A DNA stretch of 64,000 bases from positions 32,001 through 96,000 of IMG/VR virus record IMGVR_UViG_3300035670_000068. One strand, given 5' to 3'. Positions 13,206 to 43,444 of this stretch are shown piece after piece. Source of the stretch: a virus. Numbering within the stretch: position 1 is the stretch's first letter; every line of letters begins with the position of its first letter. Made by a program: the position numbers and the translations under genes. The notes below the pieces were generated by a model that searched no databases, was not told the DNA's origin, and saw nothing but the letters and a program-made list of their open reading frames with translations.

Positions 13206-13667
13206 TCAGACTGCTGCGTACCGGATCAGGTCGAATGCACGCTTCTCGTATTCACCTAACTGCTTGTAGGTTTCCCATGCTTGGGTAACTGTAGTAATCG
13301 GCGGCTCGTACATTTTGCGCATGATCTCTTTTTGGGAGTGAGACAGTCCTTCCCACCAATCCATTGCCAGTTCGTATTCTGGGTGCATGGAGTCAGCCAG
13401 GAGCTCTTCCATTGTTGCTTCACCCGGACCTCTGTGGGCATCGATGATCTCGAACATCTTTTCCATCGTCATGGGTTGAGAAGGCTGATTGGAGGTGAGC
13501 TTGTATTGATAGGTAGAACCGGGCTTGATTGTTCCTTGTCCTGAGCTTGAGAACGACAGGCTGCCTACGATCTCTTCCATGATCGGGATGATCATGTCCT
13601 TGTATTGGCTATCTATGTCGAAATCGATTGAGAGGTTCAGGACGATCCGGTTCTGGTTATCGGTCAT
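13206..13667 (-). CDS. Hypothetical protein
   Basis: Start MTDNQNR overlaps the upstream stop (ATGA). Confidence 0.7.
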   Translation of the reverse strand: MTDNQNRIVLNLSIDFDIDSQYKDMIIPIMEEIVGSLSFSSSGQGTIKPGSTYQYKLTSNQPSQPMTMEKMFEIIDAHRGPGEATMEELLADSMHPEYELAMDWWEGLSHSQKEIMRKMYEPPITTVTQAWETYKQLGEYEKRAFDLIRYAAV

Positions 13668-14152
13668 GAGAAGGCTCCAAAGGCTTGTGGTCTTGGCGGT
13701 GCTTTTGCTGCTGGTACAGGTTGCTCTTCTACCACTTCTCCGTCGATCTGGAACAGGTTTCTCAGGTGGTTGGTCAGGTAGGTGATTTCGTTTCGGTCGA
13801 GCCTTTCTTCTGTGAGCCTTCTCACTAGGATTTGGACGTAGGCTCTCCACGCTATCTTGAAGTCCTTGTATTCACCTGCGTCGGACTGATCCACCACCCA
13901 GACTTTCTTGGTGCCGTTCCATCCCAGGAACACCGGCATTCTGTAGGCTCCGTCGAAGATGAATTTGGCGAAGAACTGGCCATTGCTCTGGCTCATGTTC
14001 ACCGGGATTCCTTCGTCGTCCAGCTCAACGTCCCACAGGTAATGCAAGCCTGCTTCTGCTCTGCACAGGCCTTCTTCTGCCCGATTCATGTGGACCAGAA
14101 AGAACCTGGCGATCTCAGGGACTATCTTGGGATCGTGCTTGAGGTTTCTCAT
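13664..14152 (-). CDS. Hypothetical protein, paralog family A, C-terminal FGAFS
   Basis: Coupled ORF; shared F..AW..F/Y helix. Confidence 0.75.
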   Translation of the reverse strand: MRNLKHDPKIVPEIARFFLVHMNRAEEGLCRAEAGLHYLWDVELDDEGIPVNMSQSNGQFFAKFIFDGAYRMPVFLGWNGTKKVWVVDQSDAGEYKDFKIAWRAYVQILVRRLTEERLDRNEITYLTNHLRNLFQIDGEVVEEQPVPAAKAPPRPQAFGAFS

Positions 14153-14709
14153 GACCAGGTTCCGTATGAGCTTGGTTTCGGTGCTTGTGGCTGTGGCTCA
14201 ACCAGTGGCTTATTGGGGTCTTGAAGCCTGTACAGCTGCATGAGCAAGCGGGCGTCTATCGGGTTGCTGGTTATCGTGTGGCAGAAGCATTCCCAGGCCT
14301 TCTCGAAGGTCGTGAACCGCTGGTCGTCGTTGGGCTCTGTTATCCAGGTGCCGTCTGCGCCGATCTCGTCCGTGCAGACGATCCAGACCATTCTCTCGGG
14401 CTCCCAGACTATCCAGGCCGACCCTAGCCTCTTGCCATATTTGGCTACAGCCAGGGCGAACACACCGTCTTTGGCTACCGGCTCTTCAACCCTTCCAATG
14501 CTGTTCTCCCAGCTCTCGTAGTAGGCAAAGCCTGTGGGCAGCACCAGCACCTCGTCGGAATACTCGAACGAGATCAGGTGAGGGCTGCGCTTCAATTTGG
14601 TCAGGAAGTTCGGGGTGCCATCTACGCAGACCAGAAAGGCGGTTCTATCCCGGATTTCTTCGAACGATATGGCTCTGTTGACCAGGACGTTCTGGTATTT
14701 CTTGCTCAT
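14149..14709 (-). CDS. Hypothetical protein, paralog family A, C-terminal YGTWS
   Basis: Coupled ORF; TFEKAWECF. Confidence 0.75.
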   Translation of the reverse strand: MSKKYQNVLVNRAISFEEIRDRTAFLVCVDGTPNFLTKLKRSPHLISFEYSDEVLVLPTGFAYYESWENSIGRVEEPVAKDGVFALAVAKYGKRLGSAWIVWEPERMVWIVCTDEIGADGTWITEPNDDQRFTTFEKAWECFCHTITSNPIDARLLMQLYRLQDPNKPLVEPQPQAPKPSSYGTWS

Positions 14710-15194
14710 GACCAGGCTCCATAGAGTCTTGGCTTAGGTGTCTTGTCAGGCACTTTGCGAGGTGGCTCTTGAGCAGGTCGAGCCTCATCCCTGGCCAGGT
14801 AAACCAACATGGCCATCTTCATTTCAAACTCTTCGGAGCAAGAGCTGATCAGCTGGGAGAAGGTTGCCCAGGCATCGTGAAAATGGTCGTGGTATTCGTT
14901 CCCGGAGCACCAGCAGTTGCCTGTCCAGTAGACCTGGGCGATCACCTCTTGGTCCCGCACCAGCATGGCGAATCTCTGCTTGGCAGCCATGTTTCTCGGG
15001 ACATAAACCTCGCTGATCCGGGAGTGATCTCGAACCAGCTCCACGCCTTCTACGACCGTCAACCCCTCGTCGTTTCCGATGTGTGTCGTTACCGGCTTGA
15101 GGTTCACCGGCTTGTCGTAGAGGTCTTGACCAGGCTCATTGACCAGCTTTGGAATCATGGAGTGGTTGATCTTGATCCACACCACTTCACTCAT
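14706..15194 (-). CDS. Hypothetical protein, paralog family A, C-terminal YGAWS
   Basis: Start MSEVVW; HFHDAWATF. Confidence 0.75.
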   Translation of the reverse strand: MSEVVWIKINHSMIPKLVNEPGQDLYDKPVNLKPVTTHIGNDEGLTVVEGVELVRDHSRISEVYVPRNMAAKQRFAMLVRDQEVIAQVYWTGNCWCSGNEYHDHFHDAWATFSQLISSCSEEFEMKMAMLVYLARDEARPAQEPPRKVPDKTPKPRLYGAWS

Positions 15195-15715
15195 GAGAAG
15201 GCTCCAAAGCACTCAGGCTTTTTGACGGTCTTGATCTTGGTTGGCTTCACGGCGGTCGTTTGAGCCTTGTAGATTCGCTTCATGATCCTGGCCTGGTCTG
15301 GCTCAAGTGAAACCAGGTCTGCGAACTCTTCCCAAGCCTGCATGAACAACGGGAAGGTCTCGACCTCCTTAGTGGGCACAGCGTTCTTGCTGCCGGCGCT
15401 GACGTTGTTTACAACCCAGCAGCAGCCGTCAGTGCGGTCAGGCTCGTAGTAGATCGAAAACGAGCTCCATGAGCCTTTGGCGTTCTCGAAGCGGATCAAG
15501 GCTACCGGGTTCCAGTGCTCGTCTTGAAGCCTGTCGAACGGGAAGTCCCTGCCCTCTTCCACCTCGACGTTCACGAAGTCCCGTAGGTAGAGAATCTGGT
15601 CGCTGTCGTAAGCGCCCATGCCCTCCATGATGACCTGGTAGCCTTTTACCTCTTGGTCTTCGTTAAGCCAGGTCTCAAGCGGCCCGAGCATCAGTTCGTA
15701 GGACTTGGTGGTCAT
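15191..15715 (-). CDS. Hypothetical protein, paralog family A, C-terminal FGAFS
   Basis: Start MTTKSY; LFMQAWEEF. Confidence 0.75.
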   Translation of the reverse strand: MTTKSYELMLGPLETWLNEDQEVKGYQVIMEGMGAYDSDQILYLRDFVNVEVEEGRDFPFDRLQDEHWNPVALIRFENAKGSWSSFSIYYEPDRTDGCCWVVNNVSAGSKNAVPTKEVETFPLFMQAWEEFADLVSLEPDQARIMKRIYKAQTTAVKPTKIKTVKKPECFGAFS

Positions 15716-15936
15716 GCCCACTCCCCGAACGATTCAGGCTTCGGAGCTGGAATCCGGGATTGCTCGATCTTCTCCACATGGCGATCGATCGCTCGCTTCA
15801 TGAGTTCGGTTTCGCTGGGTATCTGCTTCATCAGGGCTCTGACGGCGGCAGCTCCTACCTCTGGAGGCAGCGGCTTGTGCATGGCCGCCTCCCGACGCTC
15901 AACCTCTTTCATCAGGTAGTCAAAGTAGTCCGACAC
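15712..15936 (-). CDS. Hypothetical protein, C-terminal FGEWA
   Basis: Likely GTG start after AGAGAGG; operator-like site at 15975-15992 upstream. Confidence 0.6.
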   Translation of the reverse strand: MSDYFDYLMKEVERREAAMHKPLPPEVGAAAVRALMKQIPSETELMKRAIDRHVEKIEQSRIPAPKPESFGEWA

Positions 15937-16345
15937 TTCCCAATGCCTCTCTGCGTTTATTAGTAAATGGTTAATAACTAACTCTCTAGTTAGTAGTATG
16001 ACAGTGAGGACTTGGGAATGACAGATCACCTCGTCCGGGAGCCTGTCTCTGGAAACGCTCTATAAGCTCGTCTGACGCTTGCCCATTTCGAAGCGCTATC
16101 TGCGCTCGTCTTTTTCGAGATCGTTCGATACCGCGCAAATCTGAGCGCTTCCCGAGCGCTTCCCTGCTCAGTCATCAGCTCAGTTTTCGACTAGCGCGGG
16201 TCTATGAACAAAATCGCAACTTTTGTTGCGCTCCCGGCAGGCTGAGAGCGTGACTTGGTGCGGGGTTGGAGCTACCCGAGGTGGCATTTTGTGAAGTTCA
16301 AGTTCACAGAGGTTCACGCCTCGGTTGATCATTTTTTGAGCAATA

Positions 16346-16368
16346 AAAAGCCCTCACTAGGAGGGCTT
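16346..16368 (-). terminator. Intrinsic terminator
   Basis: AAAAAGCCCTC-ACTAG-GAGGGCTT. Confidence 0.7.
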
Positions 16369-16371
16369 GGA

Positions 16372-16602
16372 TCACATGGCCATCTTGTATTCGTGGTACA
16401 GATAGTCGAGCAGAATGGCTTTCTTGGTGTCTCTGTCGAGAACCGACCACTGAGCTTCTGCTGGCGAGCCAGAGAAGAACATGGATGCGTTCATTCCGTC
16501 ACCCTGGTCGATGAAGTCCTGGATCAGCCTTACGGAGTCATCGAGGTCGCTGTACTCACAGGCGTCGTCGATCAGCTGCTTGATCTTGGTCAGGTGACTC
16601 AT
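16372..16602 (-). CDS. Hypothetical protein
   Basis: Start MSHLTK overlaps the upstream stop. Confidence 0.65.
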   Translation of the reverse strand: MSHLTKIKQLIDDACEYSDLDDSVRLIQDFIDQGDGMNASMFFSGSPAEAQWSVLDRDTKKAILLDYLYHEYKMAM

Positions 16603-16922
16603 TTCGGACCCCCAGCCTGCAGGCAAGCATAGACTTTGAGGCTGACTTCCAGATCACCGAACTCGTACAGACCGGCCTGGTATCCACCGGCGTCGTAGCT
16701 CTGCAGAACGTCCTCGTTGCGAATCTTGTCGCCAATTCGAACCACGTTCAGCACTCCGCTGATGTGGCGATCTGCATCGACGAAGGCAACCCGGTCGACA
16801 TACACCATCGAGCCATCGTCGCTCTTGTCTTCCTCGACCACCGTGTAGGCGATGCGCTGACCGTTGGTTAGGCAGTACATGCGGCCGGTGTTGAAGGCGT
16901 AGAACTTGTCGTTCATGGTCAT
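16599..16922 (-). CDS. Hypothetical protein
   Basis: GGAG RBS. Confidence 0.65.
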   Translation of the reverse strand: MTMNDKFYAFNTGRMYCLTNGQRIAYTVVEEDKSDDGSMVYVDRVAFVDADRHISGVLNVVRIGDKIRNEDVLQSYDAGGYQAGLYEFGDLEVSLKVYACLQAGGPK

Positions 16923-16998
16923 ACTCCGTTTACCCTTTCTCGCTTGTTTGTTGCTGTTGCGAGCATTTTACAAGCGAGATCGAGGCAGAAGGAGGCAA

Positions 16999-17415
16999 TT
17001 AGGACAGGCTAAGCGGGGGCCATTTGCTCAGATCGACACCGCACATGAGGCTCAGAACACCTTCGGGGATAGGCGAGAACCTGGGGAAAGACTCCTGGAC
17101 CCAATACTCGAAGCGCTGCTGGTCTGGCCAGAACACTCCATGCTGAGCAGCTGGTCCCATCCACATGCGAGCCCGGTAGTCGATGTAGGTGCCATCCGGC
17201 AGTTCGATCCACCAGTGAGTGACGCCAACCAGGTCGTCACCGGACACCGCTTCGTCATCCATGAGCGCGCGGTCAGTGAGTAGGCCTGTGTTGATGTGGT
17301 GATCGATGCCGTTCTTGTCCAGGAGCAGCGATATCACCCTGGACATGCCGTCACATTCCATGTGCCTGATTGGATCGAGGGGATCGAGCCAGGCCTGCAG
17401 CTTATCCACGCCCAT
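16999..17415 (-). CDS. Hypothetical protein (possible transglutaminase-like C-H-D triad)
   Basis: ECDGMS...THWWIEL...YIDY. Confidence 0.55.
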   Translation of the reverse strand: MGVDKLQAWLDPLDPIRHMECDGMSRVISLLLDKNGIDHHINTGLLTDRALMDDEAVSGDDLVGVTHWWIELPDGTYIDYRARMWMGPAAQHGVFWPDQQRFEYWVQESFPRFSPIPEGVLSLMCGVDLSKWPPLSLS

Positions 17416-17798
17416 CAGTCGTGATCCGCAGTCACCGCAGCGTACAGAATCCCTTCTGCGGTCTTCTTGGCCTCTTCCAGCTTGGCTTGCATCCGCGCAA
17501 CCATCTGCCTGTGAGCAGCCTCTGCATCTGACCAGACTGACGTTCTGAATACCGGCTCGAAGTGGCTCGGTTTCAACCTGCCTTCTTCGTGCATGAACAC
17601 CATAGTCTCGAAGAACAGAGGCTCCTGACCAAACCTATGGGACAGGTCGTAGCCCATGAACACAGTGCTGACCCATACATTCTCTATCATGGTCTCAGCG
17701 ACTCGCCGCTCTTCGCTTTGCATGAACAGCACCCATTCCTCTACGGATTCGCAGAGAACCGGCGCCTTGTCCTTGAGAATGTATCGGCCAAATCTCAC
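17415..17798 (-). CDS. Hypothetical phage protein
   Basis: VSTVFMG..H...PLFFETMVF motif; GTG start overlaps the upstream stop. Confidence 0.65.
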   Translation of the reverse strand: MRFGRYILKDKAPVLCESVEEWVLFMQSEERRVAETMIENVWVSTVFMGYDLSHRFGQEPLFFETMVFMHEEGRLKPSHFEPVFRTSVWSDAEAAHRQMVARMQAKLEEAKKTAEGILYAAVTADHD

Positions 17799-18331
17799 TG
17801 CTTCACACCTTCTACCCACCAGTCGATGCTGGAGAACTCATTGGCGTACAGAACAATGTCGTTGTTCGGCATGATCTGCGCCACCTGGAAGCCATCGGTC
17901 AGCCCCAGACCGAATTTTTCTGGCTTGTTGCTTGAGCCAGAGGATATCACCTGCAGCTCACCCGGCTTAAACCCGTTGTTCTCGATGCGCTCGAAGGCCG
18001 CATACTTGAACTTCGGCATCGCAATGAACGGGCAGACCTGGACAGCGTACTCGGCACATTCCTTGTGCATGGGCAGATCAGCGAACAGTCGGTTGGAAAT
18101 ACTGATCGGGCCGCCAACGAAAGCCATTTGACCATCAAGCCTTTGACCGCAAATGCCGCACTTGTGGTTTTTGACCGCATCCACCCACTTGAGCTGATCG
18201 ATCACCCGGAAGTCAGGCTTGCCGTTGACCCACTGAACAGTGTGCGGGATCGGATAACCCCGCTCGTCCTTCTGCAGATCAGCCACGCGAGCAGGCGTTT
18301 CAACCAGGTTCAGGTCTTTCCAGGTTTTCAT
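17795..18331 (-). CDS. Hypothetical protein with a Zn-binding motif
   Basis: CGICG...MHKECA...CPF. Confidence 0.7.
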   Translation of the reverse strand: MKTWKDLNLVETPARVADLQKDERGYPIPHTVQWVNGKPDFRVIDQLKWVDAVKNHKCGICGQRLDGQMAFVGGPISISNRLFADLPMHKECAEYAVQVCPFIAMPKFKYAAFERIENNGFKPGELQVISSGSSNKPEKFGLGLTDGFQVAQIMPNNDIVLYANEFSSIDWWVEGVKQ

Positions 18332-18525
18332 GCTTCAAACCACTCGATCACGGACCAGTCGTAGCTCAGCTCAGAGCCATCCGGGAGGCGCCAGTTGCAG
18401 TCGCTTTCATCGACGGCGACCAGTTCGTGCTCCTGGACGTTCTTGGAGCTGCAGTGCTCAATTCGGCACAACACCTGAGAGCCCGGCTTCGGCTGTTTCT
18501 CAAGAGCCTTGACCCAGCCCATCAC
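18328..18525 (-). CDS. Small phage protein (DUF551-like)
   Basis: WVKALEKQP..G..VL...VIEW pattern. Confidence 0.55.
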   Translation of the reverse strand: MMGWVKALEKQPKPGSQVLCRIEHCSSKNVQEHELVAVDESDCNWRLPDGSELSYDWSVIEWFEA

Positions 18526-22119: not shown

Positions 22120-22501
22120 CGCACTTGCCCGTCTGGAGCCTGTTCAGGAACTTCTGAGAGATAGGCGTTGCAAAGCTCTCGAAGGAGGAAAGGGTGAGCT
22201 TCGTGCCGCCATCACCCTCGGCTCTGCCTCGAATCAAATCAGTCGCTTGGCCGCCTGCAGAGAGTGGGGAGTTGGCGATGAAGCGAATCTCGAAAGACTG
22301 GCTGTAGCCGTCGAACCGGCTATCCAGGCGCCAGTTGAAGCCGCAGTAAGGGTAGGCATTCAGATTGTCGTAGACCTGCTGAGCAGGCATATCGACAGTC
22401 ACAACCTTGTAGGGCTCGCGATGCTCCAAAGGAGCGCCGGCGCAACCGGCTAGAACAGCCCCAACCACAGCAAATCCAAACAGTCGCGCCAGCACCATCA
22501 A
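22112..22501 (-). CDS. Lipoprotein
   Basis: Lipobox LAGC. Confidence 0.7.
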   Translation of the reverse strand: MMVLARLFGFAVVGAVLAGCAGAPLEHREPYKVVTVDMPAQQVYDNLNAYPYCGFNWRLDSRFDGYSQSFEIRFIANSPLSAGGQATDLIRGRAEGDGGTKLTLSSFESFATPISQKFLNRLQTGKCDG

Positions 22502-22818
22502 TTGATCTCCGATCTTTCAAGCAAAACGGCATTGCCGACGATCATATCATCGATGGGTAGAGCCCCCATAAGCGTGACCATCGACGTGGCCACCATGTTC
22601 AGAGGCAGCTTCATGAGCTTGCCTTCCTCGTTGCAGGCCAGGTAGGCGTACTCGACACCGGCGATCTTCAAAGGCTGGGCGAACGTCACAAGCTCCACCC
22701 AGCCACCGAAGAACTCGCGCAGCTTTTCCATGTTGATTAAGCCTTCCTCGAACCAGCCACCCGGAGAGCTCTGGTCGATCATGAAGGCGTTGCCGTTATG
22801 CGGGATTGCAAGCGCCAT
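22498..22818 (-). CDS. DUF3846-like protein
   Basis: GGWVELV...CNEEGKL..LPLN..A...IVGNAVL. Confidence 0.7.
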   Translation of the reverse strand: MALAIPHNGNAFMIDQSSPGGWFEEGLINMEKLREFFGGWVELVTFAQPLKIAGVEYAYLACNEEGKLMKLPLNMVATSMVTLMGALPIDDMIVGNAVLLERSEIN

Positions 22819-22990
22819 AAGTCACCCCACCATCCTTTGCGCCGATCACGTTCTTACGGAACACCGAGCGCTGTCCTTCGTCGAGCGGCCAGTCGATCTC
22901 ATGACCACAGCCAGTACACATCTTCTTGTCTTCACCGTGCAGCAGCACCAGCTCGGAGCACTTGCACTTAGGGCAAACCTTCGTCGTCAT
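22796..22990 (-). CDS. Zn-ribbon protein
   Basis: CPKC...CTGC. Confidence 0.6.
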   Translation of the reverse strand: MTTKVCPKCKCSELVLLHGEDKKMCTGCGHEIDWPLDEGQRSVFRKNVIGAKDGGVTYGACNPA

Positions 22991-23145
22991 CCCCATGTCC
23001 CATACTTGCTTTTGACTTCAAACTCTTCGAGCTCGGCGATGCCGTCCTCGATCTCCTGCAGTTCGTTGGCCCTGGCCTGCAGAACGCCGGCGAGCTCGGT
23101 CAGAACGAACTTGCGCAGCCGCTCTTCGAACGGCGGAAGGCTCAC
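22987..23145 (-). CDS. 52-aa coiled-coil protein ending YGTWG
   Basis: Manual: MSLPPFEERLRKFVLTELAGVLQARANELQEIEDGIAELEEFEVKSKYGTWG*; fills the operon gap with GTGA/ATGA overlaps. Confidence 0.7.
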   Translation of the reverse strand: MSLPPFEERLRKFVLTELAGVLQARANELQEIEDGIAELEEFEVKSKYGTWG

Positions 23146-23757: not shown

Positions 23758-24039
23758 CTATGACCATGTTCCAAATTCTTGAGGTCTACTGACCTTCTTG
23801 ACTTGCTTCGGCCTCGATTCGAGGTCGCTGTTCTCAGCCAGGCTGTCGTATTCGTCCAGCGCCATCAGATCGACCTCCTTAGCCTTCTCCATCATCGTCT
23901 TGAAGGCCTCGATGGCTTTCTTCTCCTGCATGGCTTTCATGACAGCCTCATAGGCTTCCTTCTCCACTCCGAGCTTTTCGATGGAATCGATCAGCTCGGG
24001 CATACTGGAGAAAATGCTTTTGCCTTTCCCTCGCATCAC
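23758..24039 (-). CDS. Hypothetical protein, C-terminal FGTWS
   Basis: Coupled ORF. Confidence 0.7.
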   Translation of the reverse strand: MMRGKGKSIFSSMPELIDSIEKLGVEKEAYEAVMKAMQEKKAIEAFKTMMEKAKEVDLMALDEYDSLAENSDLESRPKQVKKVSRPQEFGTWS

Positions 24040-24484: not shown

Positions 24485-25126
24485 TCAGCTAAAAGACCCG
24501 AACCCTGGAACGCTGCTGGGAACGCTCTCTGAGCGCGTTTCTGTCTGAGCGCTACGCTTGCGCGTAATCGACTGGAGAACGTCACTAGCGAGCGTTTTGC
24601 GCGCTTCCCGACGCTGTTCCTGATCGACTTCTGCAGACTCGCGAACGTATCTGTCGCCGTTGTCCAACCAGGACAGATTGATCGACCATTCAAACTGGCT
24701 TCGCCACTCCCAGCGATTCATTTCGACCTCTGCATAGGCTTCTGCCATGTGCAGCGGCCAATTGTTGACCTTCGCCATGTGCTTGAGCGTGGGTTCCAGG
24801 AAGCCCATGCGCGCAGCGTTGCCGATATGCTTAACCCGGTGGCAGCTCGGGCAAAGGCTGATCAGCCCGGTCAGGGTCTGGACCTTTTTGTCGTCGTCGT
24901 AGTGCCAGATTTCATGGCACTCGACAGGGTGCTTCTTCCCTACCCCGCCGCAGATTTCACAGCGATGACCGGCGTAGACAAAACAGGCTTTCTTGAGCAG
25001 ACCCCACTGACTCTCTGTGATCCTGGCCCGCACGTTGTCGAACCACTGACCGAACGGGACCAGCTCGATGGTCAGCCTGGGCGGATCGAAGGGTTCGAAT
25101 GGGTTTTCAGCGATCATATTTGTCAT
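24485..25126 (-). CDS. HNH endonuclease-like protein, C-terminal FGSFS
   Basis: CEICG...ECHEIW...LCPSCHRVKH. Confidence 0.75.
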   Translation of the reverse strand: MTNMIAENPFEPFDPPRLTIELVPFGQWFDNVRARITESQWGLLKKACFVYAGHRCEICGGVGKKHPVECHEIWHYDDDKKVQTLTGLISLCPSCHRVKHIGNAARMGFLEPTLKHMAKVNNWPLHMAEAYAEVEMNRWEWRSQFEWSINLSWLDNGDRYVRESAEVDQEQRREARKTLASDVLQSITRKRSAQTETRSESVPSSVPGFGSFS

Positions 25127-25379: not shown

Positions 25380-25616
25380 TTACGACCAGGAGCCTACAAC
25401 TTCGGATTCGGTCTTCACGGCCTCTTCCTCTGCTGGCTTGTCTTCGATCAGAGCCAGCACATGCACCCGCCCGGCGATGTAATGCCAGTCGTGCTTGTAG
25501 CCGGTTCGCTTGGTTTCGGCAGCACAGTAGTCTTCTGCCTCCTGCTTGGACATGGCGAAGAGACCCATGCTCTTGCCCCGATCAAACACTTCCTGGTCAC
25601 ACTTTTCGGTACTCAT
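25380..25616 (-). CDS. Hypothetical protein, C-terminal VGSWS
   Basis: GGAG RBS. Confidence 0.7.
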   Translation of the reverse strand: MSTEKCDQEVFDRGKSMGLFAMSKQEAEDYCAAETKRTGYKHDWHYIAGRVHVLALIEDKPAEEEAVKTESEVVGSWS

Positions 25617-25673: not shown

Positions 25674-26441
25674 TTAGGCGGACAGCATCGGCAGCAGCAG
25701 ACTGTCCGGGTTGGCGACGAGCTTCCCACCGTCCTTGCGGGCGAGCTCCAGGACTTGCAGCACCTTCATCAGCTGGGTGCATTGCGAGTTGGCAGTGCCG
25801 ACGCTGTACGGGCGAGCGATGTAGGCGTCACGCAGAGCCTTCGATGTGATCTCGCCTTGCTTGACGAGAATGTCCACCGCGATCTTGGTGTAGTTCGACA
25901 GCGAGGCGCCGTTGCTCAGGTGGGCGTAGAAGTTCACGACCTTCTCCTGAATCTTGATCGGCAGCGCATCGATCTCACCGAGCTTGGCGTCGATGACGGC
26001 TTTCAGATCGTCAGCCGGCAGCTCAGCGTTCTGCATCGTCAGAGCCAGGTAGTCGTTGAGCTTCGCGCCCAGCGCTTTCGACAGCGCTTCGGACTTCTTC
26101 ACACCGGCGACGGTGATGCGCTTGGTGGACGGAGCAGTGCGCTTGGGCTTGGTCGGCTCGATGCTGCCGGTAGCGATGCCTGCAGCGTCATCGACGGGCT
26201 CACCCACTTCGTCCATTTCAGCCAGCGCTTCGTTGCGGGCTTCTTCGATGCTGGCCTGGATGCCAACTTCTTCCAGCTCGTCGTCGCTCAGCTCGGCAAC
26301 GGGCTCTTCGATCACCAGTTCACCGGAGCCATCAGCTTCCAGTTCTTCGAACATGGCTTCCAGCTCGTCCAGTTGATCGAGCGGATCAACGGCAGCGGTG
26401 GTGGTAACAACTTCTTCTTGAACTTTCAGAGCAGCTTCCAT
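25674..26441 (-). CDS. Hypothetical protein, acidic N-terminus and possible winged-helix C-terminus
   Basis: GAGG RBS; strong codon bias. Confidence 0.75.
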   Translation of the reverse strand: MEAALKVQEEVVTTTAAVDPLDQLDELEAMFEELEADGSGELVIEEPVAELSDDELEEVGIQASIEEARNEALAEMDEVGEPVDDAAGIATGSIEPTKPKRTAPSTKRITVAGVKKSEALSKALGAKLNDYLALTMQNAELPADDLKAVIDAKLGEIDALPIKIQEKVVNFYAHLSNGASLSNYTKIAVDILVKQGEITSKALRDAYIARPYSVGTANSQCTQLMKVLQVLELARKDGGKLVANPDSLLLPMLSA

Positions 26442-26566: not shown

Positions 26567-27169
26567 TTACAACACCGGAATCAACGGATCAGATATCACC
26601 AAGTTAGTGCCATCAGTCATGAAGTTAGCCGGATTCTGCAGGTCAAGAAGAACATCGTGGTCGCTCTTCTCGATGTAGTCGGATATCGCCAACAATGCCC
26701 AGGACACCGATGCCGAAAACATCCTTGAAGCCGTCAGGTCTTTCAGCGCTCTCGCATGGGAAAACTTGCCCAACTCCGGCTTCTCTCCAAGCTCGCGCGC
26801 TGCAAGCCTGAAATCAACTGCGCTGGCTACGGCTTTACTCTCCAGAACCATAGTTTCATTTTCCCACTTATCCAGCGGGCGCAACTTGACCACTTCCAGC
26901 AGAGATATTTGACCGTAGTCCTGGCAGTTGAAACTTCCGTAGTCGTTCACCAACTTGGGAACACCTGGCACTCCAGACTTCAAACGAACAAAGTCTGGAT
27001 ATACCGGGTCGCAAGTTAGTTTGAGAACCGTATTGTCGGTGCATTCGTAGACGATTGAATAACAGCCGCGACCGACAATTTTCTTGCCGGTCAGAACTGG
27101 AAACTTCTCAATAATCAAATCCCGGTCTGGGTCGAATGACTCAGTGCCGGATTCACCGAATGCCATCAT
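26567..27169 (-). CDS. Protein-kinase-like fold protein
   Basis: VGRGCYSIVY (Gly loop), VLKLT, DLQNPAN, ISDP. Confidence 0.65.
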   Translation of the reverse strand: MMAFGESGTESFDPDRDLIIEKFPVLTGKKIVGRGCYSIVYECTDNTVLKLTCDPVYPDFVRLKSGVPGVPKLVNDYGSFNCQDYGQISLLEVVKLRPLDKWENETMVLESKAVASAVDFRLAARELGEKPELGKFSHARALKDLTASRMFSASVSWALLAISDYIEKSDHDVLLDLQNPANFMTDGTNLVISDPLIPVL

Positions 27170-27660
27170 TACGACCAGCCCCCGATATTGATGCCTTTCG
27201 CGCTCGCTGCTTCCAGGAGCTCTTCGTCAACATCGATGGCCAGCTCCTTCATCACCGGCGCCAGCTCGTTGCCCTCTTCAACCAGCACCATTTCCCCGTC
27301 CTCGTCTTCGTCGAGGTAGGAGCCTGTGTATTTCAGGAGAACGTCTTCATAGGCAGCCATCGCTGCAGACTTGGTGCGGAAGGTTTCGGTGGCGCCGTGA
27401 TCGATCACCCAGCCCTTGTCTTCCAGGACACTCTCTTCCTCCCACTCGCTCTTGCGAACCTGGAGGCGGGTGCGAACGAAGATGCCGTGCGAATGCCGGT
27501 ATTCGGCGGGGAGCTTCTTGTCGTAGCGACCGATCCACTCAACCGCGATCCAGATGCGGTCGTTGCGGAACTCTTTGATGATCCAGTCCTTGCAGTGGCT
27601 CTTTTCCTCCCACTGCTTCTTCGACAGGCCTTTGCCGTCAATGTCCTGGTAGATGAACAT
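27169..27660 (-). CDS. Hypothetical protein, C-terminal IGGWS
   Basis: AGGAG RBS; operator-like site at 27677-27694 upstream. Confidence 0.75.
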   Translation of the reverse strand: MFIYQDIDGKGLSKKQWEEKSHCKDWIIKEFRNDRIWIAVEWIGRYDKKLPAEYRHSHGIFVRTRLQVRKSEWEEESVLEDKGWVIDHGATETFRTKSAAMAAYEDVLLKYTGSYLDEDEDGEMVLVEEGNELAPVMKELAIDVDEELLEAASAKGINIGGWS

Positions 27661-29075: not shown

Positions 29076-29432
29076 TCACAGCCCTGCCCTCTCTTCTGCT
29101 GCCAGGAGAGCGTCACGACGCTTCGAGAAGCCGATGCAGGCGACGTTCTTGCCGCACGGCTCGCCCGTTGGGTAAACAGCCACGCTATCCGGGTCATCGA
29201 CAGCCTGAGCGTTCTTGATCATCCAGTCGGGCAGACAGGAAATGCTCGGGCTCTGCTGGTTCTCGTCATAGACCCAGCAAGTGACCTGGCGAACCTTGTC
29301 GTGGCGCACACTGACGTAAGGGAACGGCTCGTTGATCGACTTGTGGCGAGCTTCACGAAGGCGCTCAGCGTCAGTTTGAGGCTTGCAGCCGGCGATAATC
29401 AGAGCAGCGGCGATCAGGATCAGGCGCTTCAT
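29076..29432 (-). CDS. Lipoprotein
   Basis: Lipobox IAGC. Confidence 0.7.
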   Translation of the reverse strand: MKRLILIAAALIIAGCKPQTDAERLREARHKSINEPFPYVSVRHDKVRQVTCWVYDENQQSPSISCLPDWMIKNAQAVDDPDSVAVYPTGEPCGKNVACIGFSKRRDALLAAEERAGL

Positions 29433-29824
29433 GAGAACATTCCTATGCCGAGCTTCTCGGCGTTCTGAGCGATTTCCAGTCGAACAGCTTCGACCAGGCG
29501 CTCCAGGGTTTGACGATCCAGAGCCAGGTCTTTGCCGACTCGCTTCATGACCGCGATGAACTGGCCCTGCATAGCGTCACTGGACGCCAGCAGCGCTTCG
29601 CGAACCATGCTCTCGATCATGGCCTCGTCGGAGATCACCTTTTCGAGAGCTCGACTCACCGCAGCCTTGATCACCAGCTCGTTGCCGGTGATCACCTGGT
29701 CGACCATTCGATTGACCTGAACCTTGATCTGAGAACCGCTGCCGAGCATGGCGTCGCGGATTGCCTGGTGAGCAGCAGCCTCAACTGTGCTCTGCAGGCC
29801 GGTGATGGTCAGAGAATCAGTCAT
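29429..29824 (-). CDS. Hypothetical helical protein, C-terminal IGMFS
   Basis: Coupled ORF. Confidence 0.7.
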   Translation of the reverse strand: MTDSLTITGLQSTVEAAAHQAIRDAMLGSGSQIKVQVNRMVDQVITGNELVIKAAVSRALEKVISDEAMIESMVREALLASSDAMQGQFIAVMKRVGKDLALDRQTLERLVEAVRLEIAQNAEKLGIGMFS

Positions 29825-36490: not shown

Positions 36491-36494
36491 ACGA

Positions 36495-37493: not shown

Positions 37494-37777
37494 TACTTCT
37501 TCTCGCACTTCTCGGTGTAGTTGAAATCACAGTCCTTCTCGGACGACCCGCCGATAAACAGCGGGAGCCAGGCGTTGCTCGGGGCATGAACCGGAGTGGC
37601 GCTGCTCGAAGATCGAGCCTTAACGATCGGAGGCTTCGCTTGAACTGCAGGAGCTGGTCGAGCGACTACCACCGGCCTGGGTGCAATCACCACAGGGCGA
37701 GCGACAACAACGGGTGCTGCTTGAGCAACCTGAACAAGAGCTGCGGTGATCACCGCAGCCAGAAATTTCATCTTCAT
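37493..37777 (-). CDS. Exported Pro/Ala-rich small protein
   Basis: Signal peptide; PVVVARP repeats. Confidence 0.6.
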   Translation of the reverse strand: MKMKFLAAVITAALVQVAQAAPVVVARPVVIAPRPVVVARPAPAVQAKPPIVKARSSSSATPVHAPSNAWLPLFIGGSSEKDCDFNYTEKCEKK

Positions 37778-37788
37778 TGGCTTCTCGA

Positions 37789-38718: not shown

Positions 38719-38876
38719 CTTGATCTCTCTAGATAACTAAGTAGTTAGTGCTCGGGGGTATGTGAGGGTTCACGTCCCGCCCGCTCTTTTTTGCTTGCGT
38801 GAGAATTATCACTCAGCAGTTAGTTAAAAGAAAGAGCGGGAGACTAGCCCCCGCTCTCTTGCCTATCAGCTACCGC

Positions 38877-41123
38877 TTACTGGCAGGCTTCGCACTCAAA
38901 ACCCTCGACAGCCGGAGCCGGCGCTTTCTTGAGGATGTTGGCGTCTTGGCTCTGCTGCTCGGTGGCTTTCTGGATGCGCAGGTAGTAGGTCGTCTTGACG
39001 CCCTTCTTCCAGCAGCGGCGATACCAGGCGTCCAGGTCTTTGCCGTTCTTGCCCTTCGCCATGAAGATGTTGAGCGACTGAGACTGGTCGATCCACTTCT
39101 GACGCACAGCTGCGGCATCGATGGAGTATTCCTGGCTCACTTCCCACACGGTCTTTTCCAGCTCCGGGCGGTTGTGCTTGCGCAGCGGGCTCACCTGGAC
39201 GAACACACCGGACAGGTTCTCCTTCACGGTTTCGCGCTCGTTGATCGGCTCGATGCAGGCGGTGGTGCCAACTATGTTGGAGATCGTCGCGGTCGGCGCA
39301 ATCGAGGTGATGTTCGAGTTGCGAATGCCGGTGGTCTTGACCTTGTGGCGCAGGAAGTCCCACTCGGTCTTGCCGAACACATGGCAAGTCTTGTCGCGGG
39401 CGTGGTCGATGGTCAGTAGACCCTGACTCCAGGTCGAACCCTTGAAGGTCGGGTAGGCGCCGCGCTCGATGGCCAGATCAGCGGAGGCGTCGATGGAGTA
39501 GTAGGAGATTTCTTCGAACAGGCGGTCAGCCCAATCGATATGCTCCTGGCTGTCCCAATCGATACCGCACTGAACCATCGCTTCCTGGTAGCCCATGACA
39601 CCCAGGCCGACCGGGCGATGCTGCAGGTTCGACCGCTTGGCTTCTGCAGTCGGGTAGAAGTTGATATCCACCACGTTGTCGAGCATCCGAACAGCGGTGC
39701 GGACGGTCTTGCGCAGCTTCTTGCTGTCGATCTGACCGTTCGGCAGCACATGGCGAGCCAGGTTGATCGAGCCCAGGTTGCAGACGAACACCTCGTCCTT
39801 GCTGTTGTTCAGGGTGATCTCGGTGCAGAGGTTGGAGTTATGGATCACACCAACGTGAGCCTGCGGGTTGCGGCGGTTGCACTCGTCCTTGAAGGTGATC
39901 CAGGGGTTGCCGGTGCGGAACAGCTTGTCCAGCAGGTAGCGCCACAGGTGCTGAGCCTTGACCACCTTGCGAGCCAGACCGGCAGCTTCTGCTTTCTCGT
40001 AGGCGGCCTTGAAGGCGCTGCCGTACAGATCGTGCAGGCTCGGCACATCGTTCGGGCAGAACAGAGACCAGTCGCCATCTTGATCCAGGCGCTCCATGAA
40101 CAGGTCAGGAATCCAGCCAGCCGGGAAGATATCGTGAGTACGCAGGTGCTCGTCGCCGGTCTTGAGCTTGAGGTCGCAGAACTCGTAGATATCCGAGTGC
40201 CACATCTCCAGATACGGAGCGAAGGCGCCCTTGCGCTTGCCGCCCTGGTTCACCGCGACGGCCACGTCGTTGTAGATTTTCAGGAACGGAACCACGCCAG
40301 CGGATTCGCCGTTGGTGGACTCGATGATCGAGCCTGCAGAGCGAACCGGAGTCCAGGAGGTGCCGATGCCGCCTGCGAACTTGGACAGCATGGCGTTCTG
40401 CTTGAAGCCCAGGTCGAAGATTTGCTCCAGGTCGTCCGGCACCATGCCGCCGTAGCAGCTGGACAACTGCGGGAAGCGAGTCGCGGCGTTGAACAGTGTC
40501 GGAGTCGAAGCCATGTAGTCGAACTCGGACAGCACGTCATAGAACTCGACGGCGCGGTCGGTCGGGTTGTCTTCGTTCAGCGCCAGGCCCATCGCTACAC
40601 GCATCAGGAAGTGCTGCGGCAGCTCGTAGGTCTTCTTGCGCTTACCGACGATGGCCGGCTCTTTCAGCAGGTAGCGGTCGTTCAGGGTACGAATGCCCTG
40701 GAAGGTGAAGTAGAAGTCGCGCTCGGGCTTGATAGCCTGGTTCAGCGCGCTCAGGTTGAAGCGACCGTCCACCAGGCGCTCGTCGATCTGGTTGAACGAA
40801 CGGCCCTTGCTCAGATAGGACATGAGGGTCGGGTACTCGATGCCACCGCCAGTCACCTCTTTGTAGATGGACTGCAGGGTCAGGCGAGCGGCCACGAAAT
40901 CGAAGTCCGGCTGCTTGGCAGAGATCAGACCGGAGGCGGTCATGATCAGAGCGTCAGCGATCTCTTTGGTACTCATGCCGTCGTAGAACTGGATGTTCAG
41001 GTTGGCTTCGAGTTCGCTTTGGCTCACGTCCAGGCCCTCGCAGGCCCAGGCTGTGTGCGCTTGAATCTTGGTCGGGTCAAACGGCTTCACATCGCCGTTC
41101 GCTTTTACAACGTGCATTCGCAC
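38877..41123 (-). CDS. nrdA: Ribonucleotide reductase class Ia alpha subunit with ATP cone
   Basis: N-terminal VVKANG ATP cone, STPTLFN, QLSSC, SNLCTEI, VCNLGSINL, IAPTATIS, KTTYY, C-terminal CEAC. Confidence 0.97.
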   Translation of the reverse strand: MRMHVVKANGDVKPFDPTKIQAHTAWACEGLDVSQSELEANLNIQFYDGMSTKEIADALIMTASGLISAKQPDFDFVAARLTLQSIYKEVTGGGIEYPTLMSYLSKGRSFNQIDERLVDGRFNLSALNQAIKPERDFYFTFQGIRTLNDRYLLKEPAIVGKRKKTYELPQHFLMRVAMGLALNEDNPTDRAVEFYDVLSEFDYMASTPTLFNAATRFPQLSSCYGGMVPDDLEQIFDLGFKQNAMLSKFAGGIGTSWTPVRSAGSIIESTNGESAGVVPFLKIYNDVAVAVNQGGKRKGAFAPYLEMWHSDIYEFCDLKLKTGDEHLRTHDIFPAGWIPDLFMERLDQDGDWSLFCPNDVPSLHDLYGSAFKAAYEKAEAAGLARKVVKAQHLWRYLLDKLFRTGNPWITFKDECNRRNPQAHVGVIHNSNLCTEITLNNSKDEVFVCNLGSINLARHVLPNGQIDSKKLRKTVRTAVRMLDNVVDINFYPTAEAKRSNLQHRPVGLGVMGYQEAMVQCGIDWDSQEHIDWADRLFEEISYYSIDASADLAIERGAYPTFKGSTWSQGLLTIDHARDKTCHVFGKTEWDFLRHKVKTTGIRNSNITSIAPTATISNIVGTTACIEPINERETVKENLSGVFVQVSPLRKHNRPELEKTVWEVSQEYSIDAAAVRQKWIDQSQSLNIFMAKGKNGKDLDAWYRRCWKKGVKTTYYLRIQKATEQQSQDANILKKAPAPAVEGFECEACQ

Positions 41124-41369
41124 TCCTTACATCATGTGGGGGTTTATGGGTTTCTCTGAACCCAGATATTGTATCTGCTAACTAACGATTTAGTTAGCAG
41201 GTTAGTTAAACGGGATCGACTAAATTTTTCAGCCAGTCGATGACTTCCTTGTGAGCAGTCACCTTGCAGCCCGATTGCCAGTCGATGAACATGAACAGCG
41301 GAGTCAGAGCCAGTGCGAAGGGGAGCATGACCAGAGCCGCTACTACCCGCGCAAGCCTGTTCAGCGCTT

Positions 41370-41927
41370 TCATGCTGCTACCCGCCGCATCATCGCAACG
41401 ATGGCCTGGAACTCGCTGTTCTGCAGACCGGCGTTGATCGCGCCGATGGCGTCAGCCATGTGCTCGTTGTCATCGATCAGACGACCCCTGCTGGTCAGCC
41501 ATCCGGCGTTCGGGAACAGATTGAAAGCCCAATCGATCATTTCCCGCTTCGTGGCGTTCTTGTCGTCCACTGCGGCGATCTTGACCTCGTTTGGCGTCAG
41601 CTGGATCACCGGAATGTCGAGTGCAGCGACCAAGGCCATGCAGGCGCCGTAACTCATCATTGCCCGAGCAGACTGACTGCCCACGGGCATTTCAACGAAT
41701 GCGATACGGGCGCTCTTCTCTGCCTCCTTCAAACCAAGATACTGCGCACGGCAGCGGTCGAGGTCATCGGAGTTTTTCCGCGTGGTCTTGGACTTTGCGG
41801 CAGAAGTCTTGACGAGGCTGACTTTTTCAACCTCAAAACTCATTGTATCTAAGTCCAATTTGGCATGTGCGAAACCGAAGTTTCGCAATGCCGGGTCAAC
41901 ACCTATTACCTGGATGATATTGCTCAT
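41370..41927 (-). CDS. RuvC-like Holliday junction resolvase
   Basis: IGVDPALRNFG, FVEMP, P.EVK, K.EMI, HMADA. Confidence 0.85.
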   Translation of the reverse strand: MSNIIQVIGVDPALRNFGFAHAKLDLDTMSFEVEKVSLVKTSAAKSKTTRKNSDDLDRCRAQYLGLKEAEKSARIAFVEMPVGSQSARAMMSYGACMALVAALDIPVIQLTPNEVKIAAVDDKNATKREMIDWAFNLFPNAGWLTSRGRLIDDNEHMADAIGAINAGLQNSEFQAIVAMMRRVAA

Positions 41928-41931
41928 GCTC

Positions 41932-42717
41932 TTATCCAAACATGCCAATGGGATACTTCGCTTCTTCGGTTTCGATAACGCCCACGCCAACGTATGTGTC
42001 CTGTTCGCCACTTACGCCGAAGAAAGAGAAGCCGTTTTCAAATAGGAACTTCACGGCCTCTTCGATTGAGGCCAGATATTCCGAGTTGTGTGTCATGAAC
42101 TCGATTACCGGGCCTCTGCGCTTTTGCAGCCAAGCCTTGTCGAGCATTTCCCCATAAGGGGCCATGTACATTTCTTCAAATACGGTGTCGGTTTGCGGAT
42201 CACGACGCTTGCGGCCTTTGTAGAGAAGTCCGACGCCCTGTTTCTTGTCCGTCTCGAAGACCGAAATACCCTCAAGCCGGCACTCGCGAAGGTCCACGAA
42301 CATCATGTTGCGGCGCTCAAGCGGGCCGGACACTTCGCCTTCCGAATCCAGCCAGCCGGCGTGCAGAGAAATCCGCTCGCGGTTGCCTTCCAGGTGAGCC
42401 AGGTTGGAGCTGGTCCCACGAACTGTCTGGAACCAGCTATAGCAGTCCTTGTGGCGCTCGATCATCTTGGAGAGAAGGTGCCGAACGTCTCGAACCTTCT
42501 CGGAGTCGGTGATCTCCGACAGCTTTGTCAGCACCTCTTCATGAGCGCTAACCAGGAACAGCGCGTAGTCGGAGAGAAACGTATTTTTGATCTCCATGCG
42601 CTGATCAATCACGTCGGCAATGAAGTCATCCGAAGCGTTGTCCAGTACGTCTCGCATGGAGGTCAAAAATGCGGGGAGAGTTTCCCCTTCGAGTAAATAC
42701 CCCTTCAAACTAAGCAC
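41932..42717 (-). CDS. Hypothetical protein, C-terminal IGMFG
   Basis: 261-aa ORF; start uncertain. Confidence 0.7.
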   Translation of the reverse strand: MLSLKGYLLEGETLPAFLTSMRDVLDNASDDFIADVIDQRMEIKNTFLSDYALFLVSAHEEVLTKLSEITDSEKVRDVRHLLSKMIERHKDCYSWFQTVRGTSSNLAHLEGNRERISLHAGWLDSEGEVSGPLERRNMMFVDLRECRLEGISVFETDKKQGVGLLYKGRKRRDPQTDTVFEEMYMAPYGEMLDKAWLQKRRGPVIEFMTHNSEYLASIEEAVKFLFENGFSFFGVSGEQDTYVGVGVIETEEAKYPIGMFG

Positions 42718-42721
42718 TTAG

Positions 42722-43444
42722 TTACCCCCAAGTTCCAAAGTTTTCAACCTTCTCGTAGCGCTTATTCGCCTCTTCGAGAGCCTTCCGGCGCGCTTCTTTC
42801 GGTCTGAGCATCCGGTGTAGTTGCTCGAAGGCACCCTTCACGCGCTCGGCGTTATTCGCGTGAGCAACCAACTTCTGAACGTAAGCCTTCAACTCTGGCG
42901 AGTAGTCGCCCAGGTCAGAAAGGGCGATGGCCAATACTGCCGAGTTGTGCTTGTTGACCACGTTGACCTGGTGCGACGGGAAGTCCTTGTGCGGCCAGGC
43001 TCGGAAGGTAATCACGACCTCGTAGCTCATGAGCTTCGCGGCGACCGGGTAGAACGCCCAATCTTCTGTGAAGGCGACGTTCACCGGGTTCAGCTTGGCG
43101 TCACCGCCGATCACGCTGAACTTGTGGTTCGGTTTACTGGGCGAGAAACCAACGCCAAGCGTTTTCTCGAAAACATTGGTCAGCTCGCAGACCAGGTTGA
43201 TATAGGCGCTCTCGTTCAGCTCGATGATCTCGTCGCCTACATGAACGTCCTCTTCCGCCAGGGTTCTCAGCGCTTCAATCACCGGCGCTGAGCCAAGCTT
43301 CGATCTACCGACCCGGAACGAGGTGTCTCGCCCGGTGCGGTAGTGTCGGATCAGGTCTTTGTTCAGAAGAGCTCGGTTGAACTCTTCTTTGCGGTCCTCC
43401 CACTGCTGATCCAGTGGGATCGCTCCATGTCGAATCAGAGGCAT
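42722..43444 (-). CDS. Hypothetical protein, C-terminal FGTWG
   Basis: GGAG RBS; overlaps the sbcC end. Confidence 0.75.
   Translation of the reverse strand: MPLIRHGAIPLDQQWEDRKEEFNRALLNKDLIRHYRTGRDTSFRVGRSKLGSAPVIEALRTLAEEDVHVGDEIIELNESAYINLVCELTNVFEKTLGVGFSPSKPNHKFSVIGGDAKLNPVNVAFTEDWAFYPVAAKLMSYEVVITFRAWPHKDFPSHQVNVVNKHNSAVLAIALSDLGDYSPELKAYVQKLVAHANNAERVKGAFEQLHRMLRPKEARRKALEEANKRYEKVENFGTWG

Follow-up and report, generated by a model that had tools for sequence, protein, structure and literature searches.

Fourteen of the 154 genes in a 110,316-bp phage genome (IMG/VR record IMGVR_UViG_3300035670_000068) encode proteins that end in the same short peptide, hereafter called the tail. Its core, located at the very C-terminus, is aromatic/hydrophobic-Gly-x-[Trp/Phe], and in the clade to which this phage belongs one small residue (Ser, Ala or Gly) is added. 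The stretch of DNA that was analysed, referred to here as the window, comprises bases 32001-96000 of the genome (64,000 nucleotides). The tail is a real C-terminal short linear motif, and we regard it as probable that through it all of its carriers are gripped by one reader, bringing accessory proteins that handle DNA to replicating or broken DNA, and that this reader is more likely a protein of the host than of the phage. What is new is the motif itself, how widely it occurs and that plasmid recombinases bear it. An earlier note, made from the sequence of the window, knew of no description of the motif, and we likewise found none in the literature searched; nor do the titles and abstracts of papers that mention these phages refer to it.

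Distribution and anatomy of the tail

In a six-frame scan of the window with the regular expression G.[WF][SAG]-stop, exactly 13 of 1178 stop-to-stop open reading frames (ORFs) of at least 30 aa were matched, and none of the 1165 others. All 13 lie on the minus strand, and they are the same 13 that the earlier note had listed, each recovered with the stop position and tail sequence given there. A 14th carrier lies past the end of the window (genome positions 100096-100920, tail SAWGAFG). About 1 gene in 11 of the whole genome is therefore tailed, where 0.13 genes would be expected from amino-acid composition or 0.25 from the frequency of the pattern inside proteins (binomial P of about 1e-24). 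The note had proposed enrichment over background as a check on its reading, and the check is answered by these numbers.

Among named phages, those of Pseudomonas syringae in the genus Nickievirus are the closest relatives. The RHph_N1_10-type phages of Rhizobium are more remote, with an identical gene order in the replication block. Together with uncultured relatives these make up the family that carries the tail, DnaE-type siphophages of 90-120 kb. Our comparison set consists of 26 genomes, namely the window's phage, nickie, RHph_N1_10 and 23 uncultured contigs of 91-121 kb; the uncultured relatives were retrieved by means of SbcC and DnaE, and one gene-calling script was used for all genomes. 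Of the 3630 proteins in this set, 181 end in hydrophobic-G-x-[WF] followed by at most one small residue, and about 7 would be expected. The 181 carriers form about 90 clusters that are unrelated in sequence, 61 of them with a single carrier. Each genome of the own clade encodes 9-14 carriers, and most other relatives encode 3-11. Within orthogroups the tail is kept by 13/14, 11/11, 11/11, 6/6, 6/6 and 5/5 members, so that conservation in orthologues, which the earlier note had also put forward as a check, is borne out.

The form of the tail varies by lineage, and within a lineage it is shared by all carriers together: [FY]GxW[AS], FGRF, WG[ST]W or WG[ILM]F. The six genomes of the own clade contain only the form with one extra small residue. 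Fifteen of the other 20 genomes contain only the form that ends on the aromatic, and genomes G006, G007, G008, G010, G012 and G014 also have one or two tails of the extra-residue form. While synonymous codons vary freely, position -2 is Arg in the Rhizobium-type lineage (FGRF), Ser or Thr in the WG[ST]W lineage and Ile, Leu or Met in the WG[ILM]F lineage. An alignment of one orthogroup (A5) illustrates this: the members end in GGWS in 5/5 own-clade genomes and in G[AS]W in 5/5 others, and Gly and Trp are the sole invariant C-terminal residues.

Conservation extends upstream of the core. In the short form there is Tyr at -10, Asn or His at -7 and Pro at -6 (Y-x-x-[N/H]-P-x), and in the own clade Lys or Arg at -8 (40/81) and Pro at -7 (26/81), giving [K/R]-P-x-x; other clades have N/H-P and acidic residues instead of basic ones. 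The tail is preceded by a flexible linker rich in Pro, Glu and Lys, in which Pro is enriched 1.95-fold and Glu 2.09-fold, in agreement with the Pro/charged linker described in the note. In the predicted model of one carrier (27169-27660) the body of the protein, up to about residue 130, has a predicted local distance difference test score (pLDDT) of 80-90, and the linker and tail are of low confidence, with the tail below 50. The extended pattern P.[FWY]G.[FW] is terminal 44 times and is found 0 times at a distance of 2-5 residues from the end. It occurs internally 23 times in 830,000 residues, about two thirds of these in one conserved ATPase-like orthogroup. The member of this kind in the present phage is a 319-aa ABC-ATPase-like protein encoded just before the window (genome 29127-30086, minus strand), which has an internal S-P-[VM]-Y-G-[IV]-W about 37 residues from its end. 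This sequence is present in every orthologue examined and supplies most of the internal matches to the extended pattern; it could be due to chance or could be a built-in look-alike of the tail.

The tail thus has the general properties of a short linear docking motif: it is short, lies in a disordered region, is kept in orthologues amid varying flanks and is found on unrelated proteins. From its retention in orthologues, its lineage-specific forms, its strictly terminal position and its linker, we infer a docking motif with one reader, the pocket of which would differ by lineage.

The 13 carriers encoded in the window are as follows.

13664-14152, minus strand: 162 aa, tail PRPQAFGAFS; opens the series of four weak tandem paralogues
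14149-14709, minus strand: 186 aa, tail PKPSSYGTWS; tandem paralogue
14706-15212, minus strand: 168 aa, tail PKPRLYGAWS; tandem paralogue
15191-15721, minus strand: 176 aa, tail KKPECFGAFS; tandem paralogue
15712-16029, minus strand: about 105 aa, start uncertain, tail PKPESFGEWA; missed by the gene caller used
22987-23145, minus strand: 52 aa, tail SKYGTWG
23758-24039, minus strand: 93 aa, tail SRPQEFGTWS; stop codon TAG, downstream gene with its own TAGGAG ribosome-binding site
24485-25126, minus strand: 213 aa, HNH endonuclease (phrog_5200, E 7e-49), tail VPGFGSFS; no ATGA overlap
25380-25616, minus strand: 78 aa, tail EVVGSWS; adjoins the winged-helix gene 25674-26441 throughout the own clade
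27169-27660, minus strand: 163 aa, adjoins DnaQ, tail INIGGWS; orthologues in 11 genomes, 11/11 tailed
29429-29824, minus strand: 131 aa, tail LGIGMFS; orthologues tailed 5/5
41932-42717, minus strand: 261 aa, between SbcC and RuvC, tail YPIGMFG; the relatives' gene at the same position ends IG[GSE]W[AS]
42722-43444, minus strand: 240 aa, directly after SbcC, tail ENFGTWG; no coupled gene downstream, orthologues tailed 6/6 at about 28% identity

The earlier note had called the carriers mostly unrelated. This holds with a correction, as the four tandem genes at 13664-15721 are weak paralogues (BLASTP E 1e-3 to 2e-6); the remaining carriers have nothing in common except the tail, and the genome contains about 11 independent families. 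The four paralogues share a Trp-rich core (...W.V.....F..AW..F...) and a [KR]-P-x-x-[FY]-G-A/T-[WF]-S tail, and they match no known family. Most carriers, in fact, are without a family match. Those that can be named are HNH endonucleases (one in this phage), WGR-domain proteins, which resemble nick sensors, and, in relatives, a Mu Gam/Ku-like protein; a search for relatives of a WGR carrier returned only members of this phage family. The primase-ligase and SbcCD-RuvC blocks encode carriers without names, and small early proteins are numerous among the carriers. Near primase, ligase, RuvC and SbcCD there are 1.2-1.4 carriers within four genes on either side, compared with 0.4 expected. None of the 38 genes of the structural and packaging block is tailed, versus 13/115 elsewhere. 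The tail is also absent from this phage's DnaE, DnaB, primase, SSB, RecA, SbcCD and NrdAB, as the note had said of the core replication enzymes. Taken together, the named carriers and the gene neighbourhoods suggest that the action takes place at DNA ends, at nicks and at replication forks.

The non-structural genes of the genome include those for a DnaE-type polymerase, a gp32-like SSB, a UvsX/RecA-like recombinase, SbcCD, RuvC, NrdAB, a 5'-3' exonuclease, a sigma-like factor, a CobS-like MoxR ATPase, a CobT-like vWA protein and an HslV-like peptidase; DnaQ, DnaB and primase were assigned through synteny and similarity to annotated relatives. Whole elements of the family, of about 117-118 kb, are present as separate contigs in assemblies of Phyllobacterium myrsinacearum AN3 (118,187 bp) and Shinella zoogloeoides (117 kb). 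Separate contigs in cultured Rhizobiales fit carriage as an episome or phage-plasmid, or contamination by a lytic phage. The annotation of RHph_N1_10 includes RepC and ParA.

Plasmid recombinases and the case for a host reader

A pattern scan for NPNFGRF-stop in 185,579 bacterial genomes yielded 41 matches, about the number estimated for chance, of which seven end real ORFs of at least 60 aa. In Cereibacter azotoformans (contig G026:C31) there are two Resolvase-domain proteins, that is, serine recombinases, encoded 3 kb apart with a GIY-YIG nuclease gene between them. They end in Y-K-D-N-P-N-F-G-R-F and Y-T-N-D-P-L-Y-G-A-F, and neither the Tyr at -10 nor any of the second tail was contained in the search pattern. 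Close relatives of these recombinases end in NPFFGLF or DPNFGRF, and a group at 38-41% identity has FG[LST]F after a basic patch; ordinary resolvases, of 206-231 aa, are without such a C-terminal extension. The first recombinase is found with 100% identity on the 43.9-kb plasmid p4 (NZ_CP090026.1, 25289-26068), and the second is presumably the product of 22304-23098 on p4, to judge from its position. This plasmid carries a CRISPR-Cas I-U system, toxin-antitoxin pairs and a Tn3 transposase, and its gene content includes no phage genes, no cobST and no hslV. Two recombinase genes of ordinary resolvase length (about 195 and 231 aa by their coordinates) are also present on p4.

Because the tail is found on recombinases of a plasmid that is free of phage genes, it is not private to the phage family, and a host-encoded reader is favoured. 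The earlier note had described a phage-encoded label, and this part of its claim is not supported, since the same extended tail is carried by recombinases of a Cereibacter plasmid that lacks CobS/CobT and HslV along with phage genes. We lean somewhat toward a reader encoded by the host; a phage-encoded reader is a possible but clearly weaker prospect, and it is unlikely that there is no protein reader or that something else again is at work. NPNFGRF also ends a 238-aa protein in a Mesorhizobium metagenome-assembled genome (MAG; 63.8-kb contig) and a 164-aa protein in a Halothiobacillaceae MAG. The surroundings of these two genes have at most one gene in common with the phage family, and the two proteins are possibly additional carriers from outside it.

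The mechanism that we propose would have a single reader protein grip all of the carriers through their tails, so that accessory proteins that handle DNA would be brought to the reader at replicating or broken DNA. Given the recombinases of the phage-gene-free plasmid, the reader would more likely be a conserved host protein than one of the phage. Candidates would include an unconventional site on the beta sliding clamp, some other hub of the replisome or of repair, or a protease.

A number of considerations weigh against this proposal. A single plasmid lineage underlies the case for a reader of the host, and the plasmid recombinase genes could have been captured from a family phage, or the tail could have another purpose there. 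A phage-encoded reader that co-evolves with the tail would explain the lineage-specific forms no less well, and in the genomes compared the effects of host and phage are confounded. A scan of the 4.4-Mb Cereibacter genome revealed no chromosomal protein that ends in P-x-[FY]-G-x-F-stop, and we know of no endogenous host client of the tail. Comparative genomics provides candidate readers, and it is from sequence that we infer a common one. Finally, a tag for degradation would produce the same sequence pattern.

Other readers and other explanations

A specific version of the host-reader idea is that the tail serves as an unconventional binding motif for the host beta sliding clamp, on which repair and replication accessory proteins would be held. 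We consider this unlikely. The consensus for clamp binding is Q-L-x-L-F, mostly C-terminal, with Gln at position 1 and the hydrophobic positions 4 and 5 conserved (PMC4549789, PMC12867686). Like the tail, clamp motifs are short, usually C-terminal after an unstructured stretch, and used by proteins of mobile elements (PMC4549789, PMC12867686). The carriers are indeed DNA-handling proteins, and in the WG[ILM]F form position 4 is hydrophobic. Further, Pol II of Escherichia coli ends in QLGLF, which reads hydrophobic-G-x-F-COOH. No phage-encoded clamp was seen in this phage, which has DnaE and DnaQ, and clamp annotation is absent in nickie and RHph_N1_10. The DnaE gene (52038-55412, minus strand) specifies a conserved internal Q[KIL]EL[LM]PG at 52638-52661 of the window (residues ~918-925), and this canonical motif, at about residue 920, suggests that the phage polymerase probably uses the host beta clamp. 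In E. coli alpha the matching position is that of the clamp-binding QADMF. The C-terminus of DnaE is conserved as well, as QVAEIF(T).

The residues of the tail itself speak against the clamp. At position 1, just before the first aromatic, the 181 tails have N 29, G 28, D 28, E 19 and A 19 times, and Q is outside the top seven. Most lineages have Arg, Ser/Thr, Gly or Ala at position 4, and I/L/M is found there in one lineage form only. Position 5 is aromatic, in line with the clamp consensus (F 92, W 89), with Trp no rarer than Phe. Clamp motifs also work internally, whereas the tail is confined to the terminus, and the clamp pocket is highly conserved, which fits the lineage-specific forms poorly. 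As the phage's own DnaE uses a canonical Q-type motif, the tail would belong to a different class. Judged by its sequence, the tail is not a canonical beta-clamp motif.

Among the proteins of the phage itself, the following were considered as readers.

4969-5625, minus strand: HslV-like peptidase, the reader proposed by the earlier note; excluded on phyletic grounds
56612-57829, minus strand: CobS-like MoxR AAA+ ATPase, 405 aa, partner of the vWA protein; candidate
57924-60071, minus strand: CobT-like vWA protein, 715 aa, with a MIDAS (metal-ion-dependent adhesion site) motif, DxSGS, invariant in 26/26 genomes; candidate reader
25674-26441, minus strand: conserved 255-aa protein, its long N-terminal half acidic and disordered, its C-terminal domain a tandem winged helix; weak candidate for the reader

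The phage-encoded reader could be the CobT-like vWA protein together with the CobS-like ATPase, a pair that the earlier note had also named. On this view the tail would be caught by the vWA protein, its terminal carboxylate bound to the MIDAS metal and its aromatics held in an adjoining pocket, and remodelling or release of the client would fall to the ATPase. All 26 genomes encode the pair with its MIDAS motif intact, no CobN-like substrate partner was seen, and the lineage-specific forms of the tail would suit a phage reader that co-evolves with it. Such a role also accords with what has been reported of related domains. It has been proposed that vWA domains capture extended peptides for their MoxR partners (PMC7159879), the MIDAS face of CobST is left open to a partner (bioRxiv 10.64898/2026.10.09.757910), and the vWA domain of Ku80 binds basic-patch/Pro/Trp motifs of several repair factors (PMC4831024). 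We nevertheless find this reading rather improbable, as the pair is intact in the tail-poor genome G006, is absent from the Cereibacter plasmid with tailed recombinases, and has few carriers in its vicinity (0.16-0.28 within four genes on either side, versus 0.4 expected).

The HslV-like peptidase was rejected as a reader because 14 of 22 further relatives, and G002 as well, lack phrog_1040; the HslV-less relatives G009, G016, G011, G020 and G010 hold 6-11 tails each. The ORF at 4969-5625 would encode 218 aa and matches the family from residue 59, and its orthologues are of 154-183 aa, so its true start is probably internal. Peptidases of the HslV type require an N-terminal Thr.

The winged-helix protein is a weak candidate. 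It is encoded among carrier genes, has a hub-like build, and of the 26 genomes is absent only from G006. Its winged-helix domain was modelled with confidence and has CzrA/SmtB, MukE, SelB and the N-terminal domain of T4 MotA as weak structural neighbours. The link is weakened by the loss of several other genes from G006, and the protein is undetectable in the Cereibacter genome. Two further conserved proteins, of 246 and 305 aa, have no match to solved structures or in the Atlas, and neither is clamp-like. Alignments of the core proteins were also inspected for columns that are acidic only in the lineage with Arg at -2; there are 13, scattered and without a cluster. The best of them, in DnaB, is probably irrelevant and may be close to the Walker A loop.

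Genome G006 (IMGVR_UViG_3300028031_000001) is of 108.6 kb with 40% G+C, and its DnaE is 48% identical. Tails are almost absent from it, and it is without the winged-helix protein, one ParB-like gene, both ABC-ATPase-like genes, ligase and NrdAB. We view it as a natural case of loss of the system, perhaps with a change of host behind the loss. A search for relatives of G006 returned only G006 itself. A separate matter is the gp32-family SSB (49616-50503, minus strand), which has an acidic tail, DDLDELDELLG, of a type conserved among relatives; it represents a second, separate C-terminal tail system in this phage.

At the same low probability as the CobS/CobT-like pair we place the possibility that the tail is a degradation tag, read by a host protease (Lon, HslUV or ClpXP) or by the phage HslV, that keeps potentially harmful DNA-acting proteins and early proteins short-lived. 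An exposed aromatic tail on a flexible linker would suit this function, and the carriers, the plasmid recombinases included, are early proteins or proteins that cut or bind DNA. There are precedents: Lon and HslUV recognise the C-terminus of SulA, which ends in Tyr-His, and the Lon of Mesoplasma reads an ssrA tag ending in YAFA. For the phage HslV the distribution described above (14/22 further relatives and G002 lack it) argues to the contrary. More generally, the ten-residue pattern, the invariant Gly and the lineage forms are more specific than known protease tags, and conserved replication and repair accessory proteins are tailed in every orthologue.

It is very improbable that no protein reads the tail and that it acts as a small anchor for membrane or DNA (basic plus aromatic) or as a signal for packaging in the capsid. 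The aromatics of the own clade do follow a basic patch, and the tail is found in unrelated mobile elements and hosts. However, the upstream residues are acidic in many lineages, and the invariant Gly, the fixed spacing and a lineage-specific residue at -2 under synonymous variation indicate a shaped pocket. The count of 0/38 tailed genes in the structural and packaging block also weighs against this reading. The note had suggested capsid co-packaging as one role, and we found nothing to support it; the regions that encode carriers are those of replication, repair and early functions, and the named carriers handle DNA.

Least credible of all is the view that the tail is a by-product of translational coupling, in which a Shine-Dalgarno sequence of the GGAG type, placed seven bases ahead of an ATGA overlap of stop and start, is read in frame. 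It is true that 7 of the 13 tails in the window end NNA-TGA with a GGA or GGG codon at -4 and with the next ATG overlapping the stop, and that tail and overlap are associated (odds ratios 2.2-6.9). This modest association follows from the location of carriers in tightly packed operons, where they end in codons such as TCA or GCA. Most gene ends coupled by ATGA have no tail (22/28 in this genome and 26/34 in nickie), and in those of this genome the Shine-Dalgarno-like bases are in other frames. Conversely, 7 of the 13 called carriers of the genome have no ATGA overlap, and the six tails of the window that do not end NNA-TGA are followed by TAA or TAG with a ribosome-binding site apart from the tail, or lack a following gene. 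Gly is encoded by each of its four codons (GGA 22, GGG 15, GGC 16 and GGT 19 in six own-clade genomes), and a ribosome-binding sequence accounts neither for Trp/Phe at -2 (TGG 44, TTC 22, TTT 6) nor for the aromatic before Gly. Tails of the Rhizobium type end TTC-TGA/TAA/TAG without overlap and with synonymous variation, and the residues are kept by orthologues at 25-30% identity. It is the peptide that is under selection, and not a ribosome-binding signal that overlaps its codons. The earlier note had argued the same from codons that vary synonymously; that variation is present in the DNA of the window, and the argument is strengthened by the tail-less coupled ends, by the half of the tails that are uncoupled and by the full range of Gly codons.

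Implications and likenesses to known systems

The address label put forward in the note is supported in this sense: a selected peptide on a flexible linker, kept by orthologues and with a form that switches in step among the carriers of a lineage, the tail behaves as a label for one common partner. Should a single partner read it, some 14 phage proteins of unknown function, or about 180 across the 26 genomes, would share a handle by which they could be placed in a pathway, and the lineage-specific forms would become a natural specificity series for mapping the pocket. The tail on plasmid serine recombinases suggests a code that is common to mobile elements and aimed at the host. We offer, tentatively, the broader possibility that a recruiting code not described before is common to phages and plasmids of Proteobacteria. 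It would consist of a terminal aromatic-Gly-x-aromatic tail for which the reader is an unmapped host hub, or an unmapped site on a known hub; the forms of the tail would track the reader and could set the hosts in which the accessory proteins work. If true, this would be a new contact point of mobile DNA with the bacterial replication or repair machinery, and a possible determinant of host range. The present case points to shared C-terminal tails as a general and little-studied mode of organisation of phage proteomes.

Several known systems resemble the tail in part. The C-terminus of the eukaryotic and archaeal ribosomal stalk, MGFGLFD, is likewise aromatic-Gly-x-aromatic plus one residue on a flexible acidic linker, and it inserts into hydrophobic pockets of several partners (PMC3280276). 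The biology of the stalk is unrelated, and its tail is carried by one protein family, so the analogy is only chemical. The C-terminal tails of the HbYX and HslU type dock on the proteasome or HslV. As in the own clade they have a penultimate aromatic at the C-terminus. A further likeness is the idea of a terminal peptide gripped by a protease ring, or by a vWA protein as in the peptide capture proposed for vWA-MoxR pairs (PMC7159879). In the tail, however, the aromatic is Trp or Phe rather than Tyr, most genomes outside the own clade end on it, and a small or polar residue usually precedes it; moreover, HslV does not co-occur with tails. The SSB tail, an acidic run followed by I-P-F, shares with the present one a flexible linker and a hydrophobic tip ending in Phe, with a pocket that accepts the terminus, and it serves to organise proteins of replication and repair. 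The polarity is reversed, in that SSB presents one tail to many readers and here many tails presumably meet one reader.

The own-clade tail, [KR]-P-x-x-[FY]-G-x-[WF]-[SA], may also be likened to the Ku-binding motifs (KBM) and XLF-like motif of the eukaryotic end-joining factors APLF, WRN, MRI, XLF and PAXX, in which a basic patch is followed by Pro and Trp/Phe. The XLF-like form is typically C-terminal, the KBM docks in a hydrophobic vWA pocket, and repair factors are thereby recruited to one hub (PMC4831024). There is no homology with these motifs, which belong to a different kingdom; the Gam/Ku-like protein of the present family is itself a carrier, and other clades are acidic upstream. The clamp motif (QL[SD]LF or QLxLxL, on polymerases, transposases and MuC of Mu) is, like the tail, a hydrophobic peptide of 5-6 residues, mostly C-terminal, on many unrelated DNA-handling proteins, and the clamp is one hub that reads them all (PMC4549789, PMC12867686). 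The tail differs from it in the absence of Gln 1, the invariant Gly, the mostly polar or small position 4, the common Trp, the strictly terminal location and the lineage forms. In T4 and RB69 the C-termini of gp43, gp33 and gp55 bind the gp45 clamp, and T7 has acidic tails ending in Phe. In these phages, as here, several proteins share a C-terminal tail, and theirs docks on one replication protein of the phage. They have about three carriers and a known phage reader, whereas in the present family each own-clade genome has 9-14 carriers and no phage clamp, and the tail is found on plasmid recombinases too.

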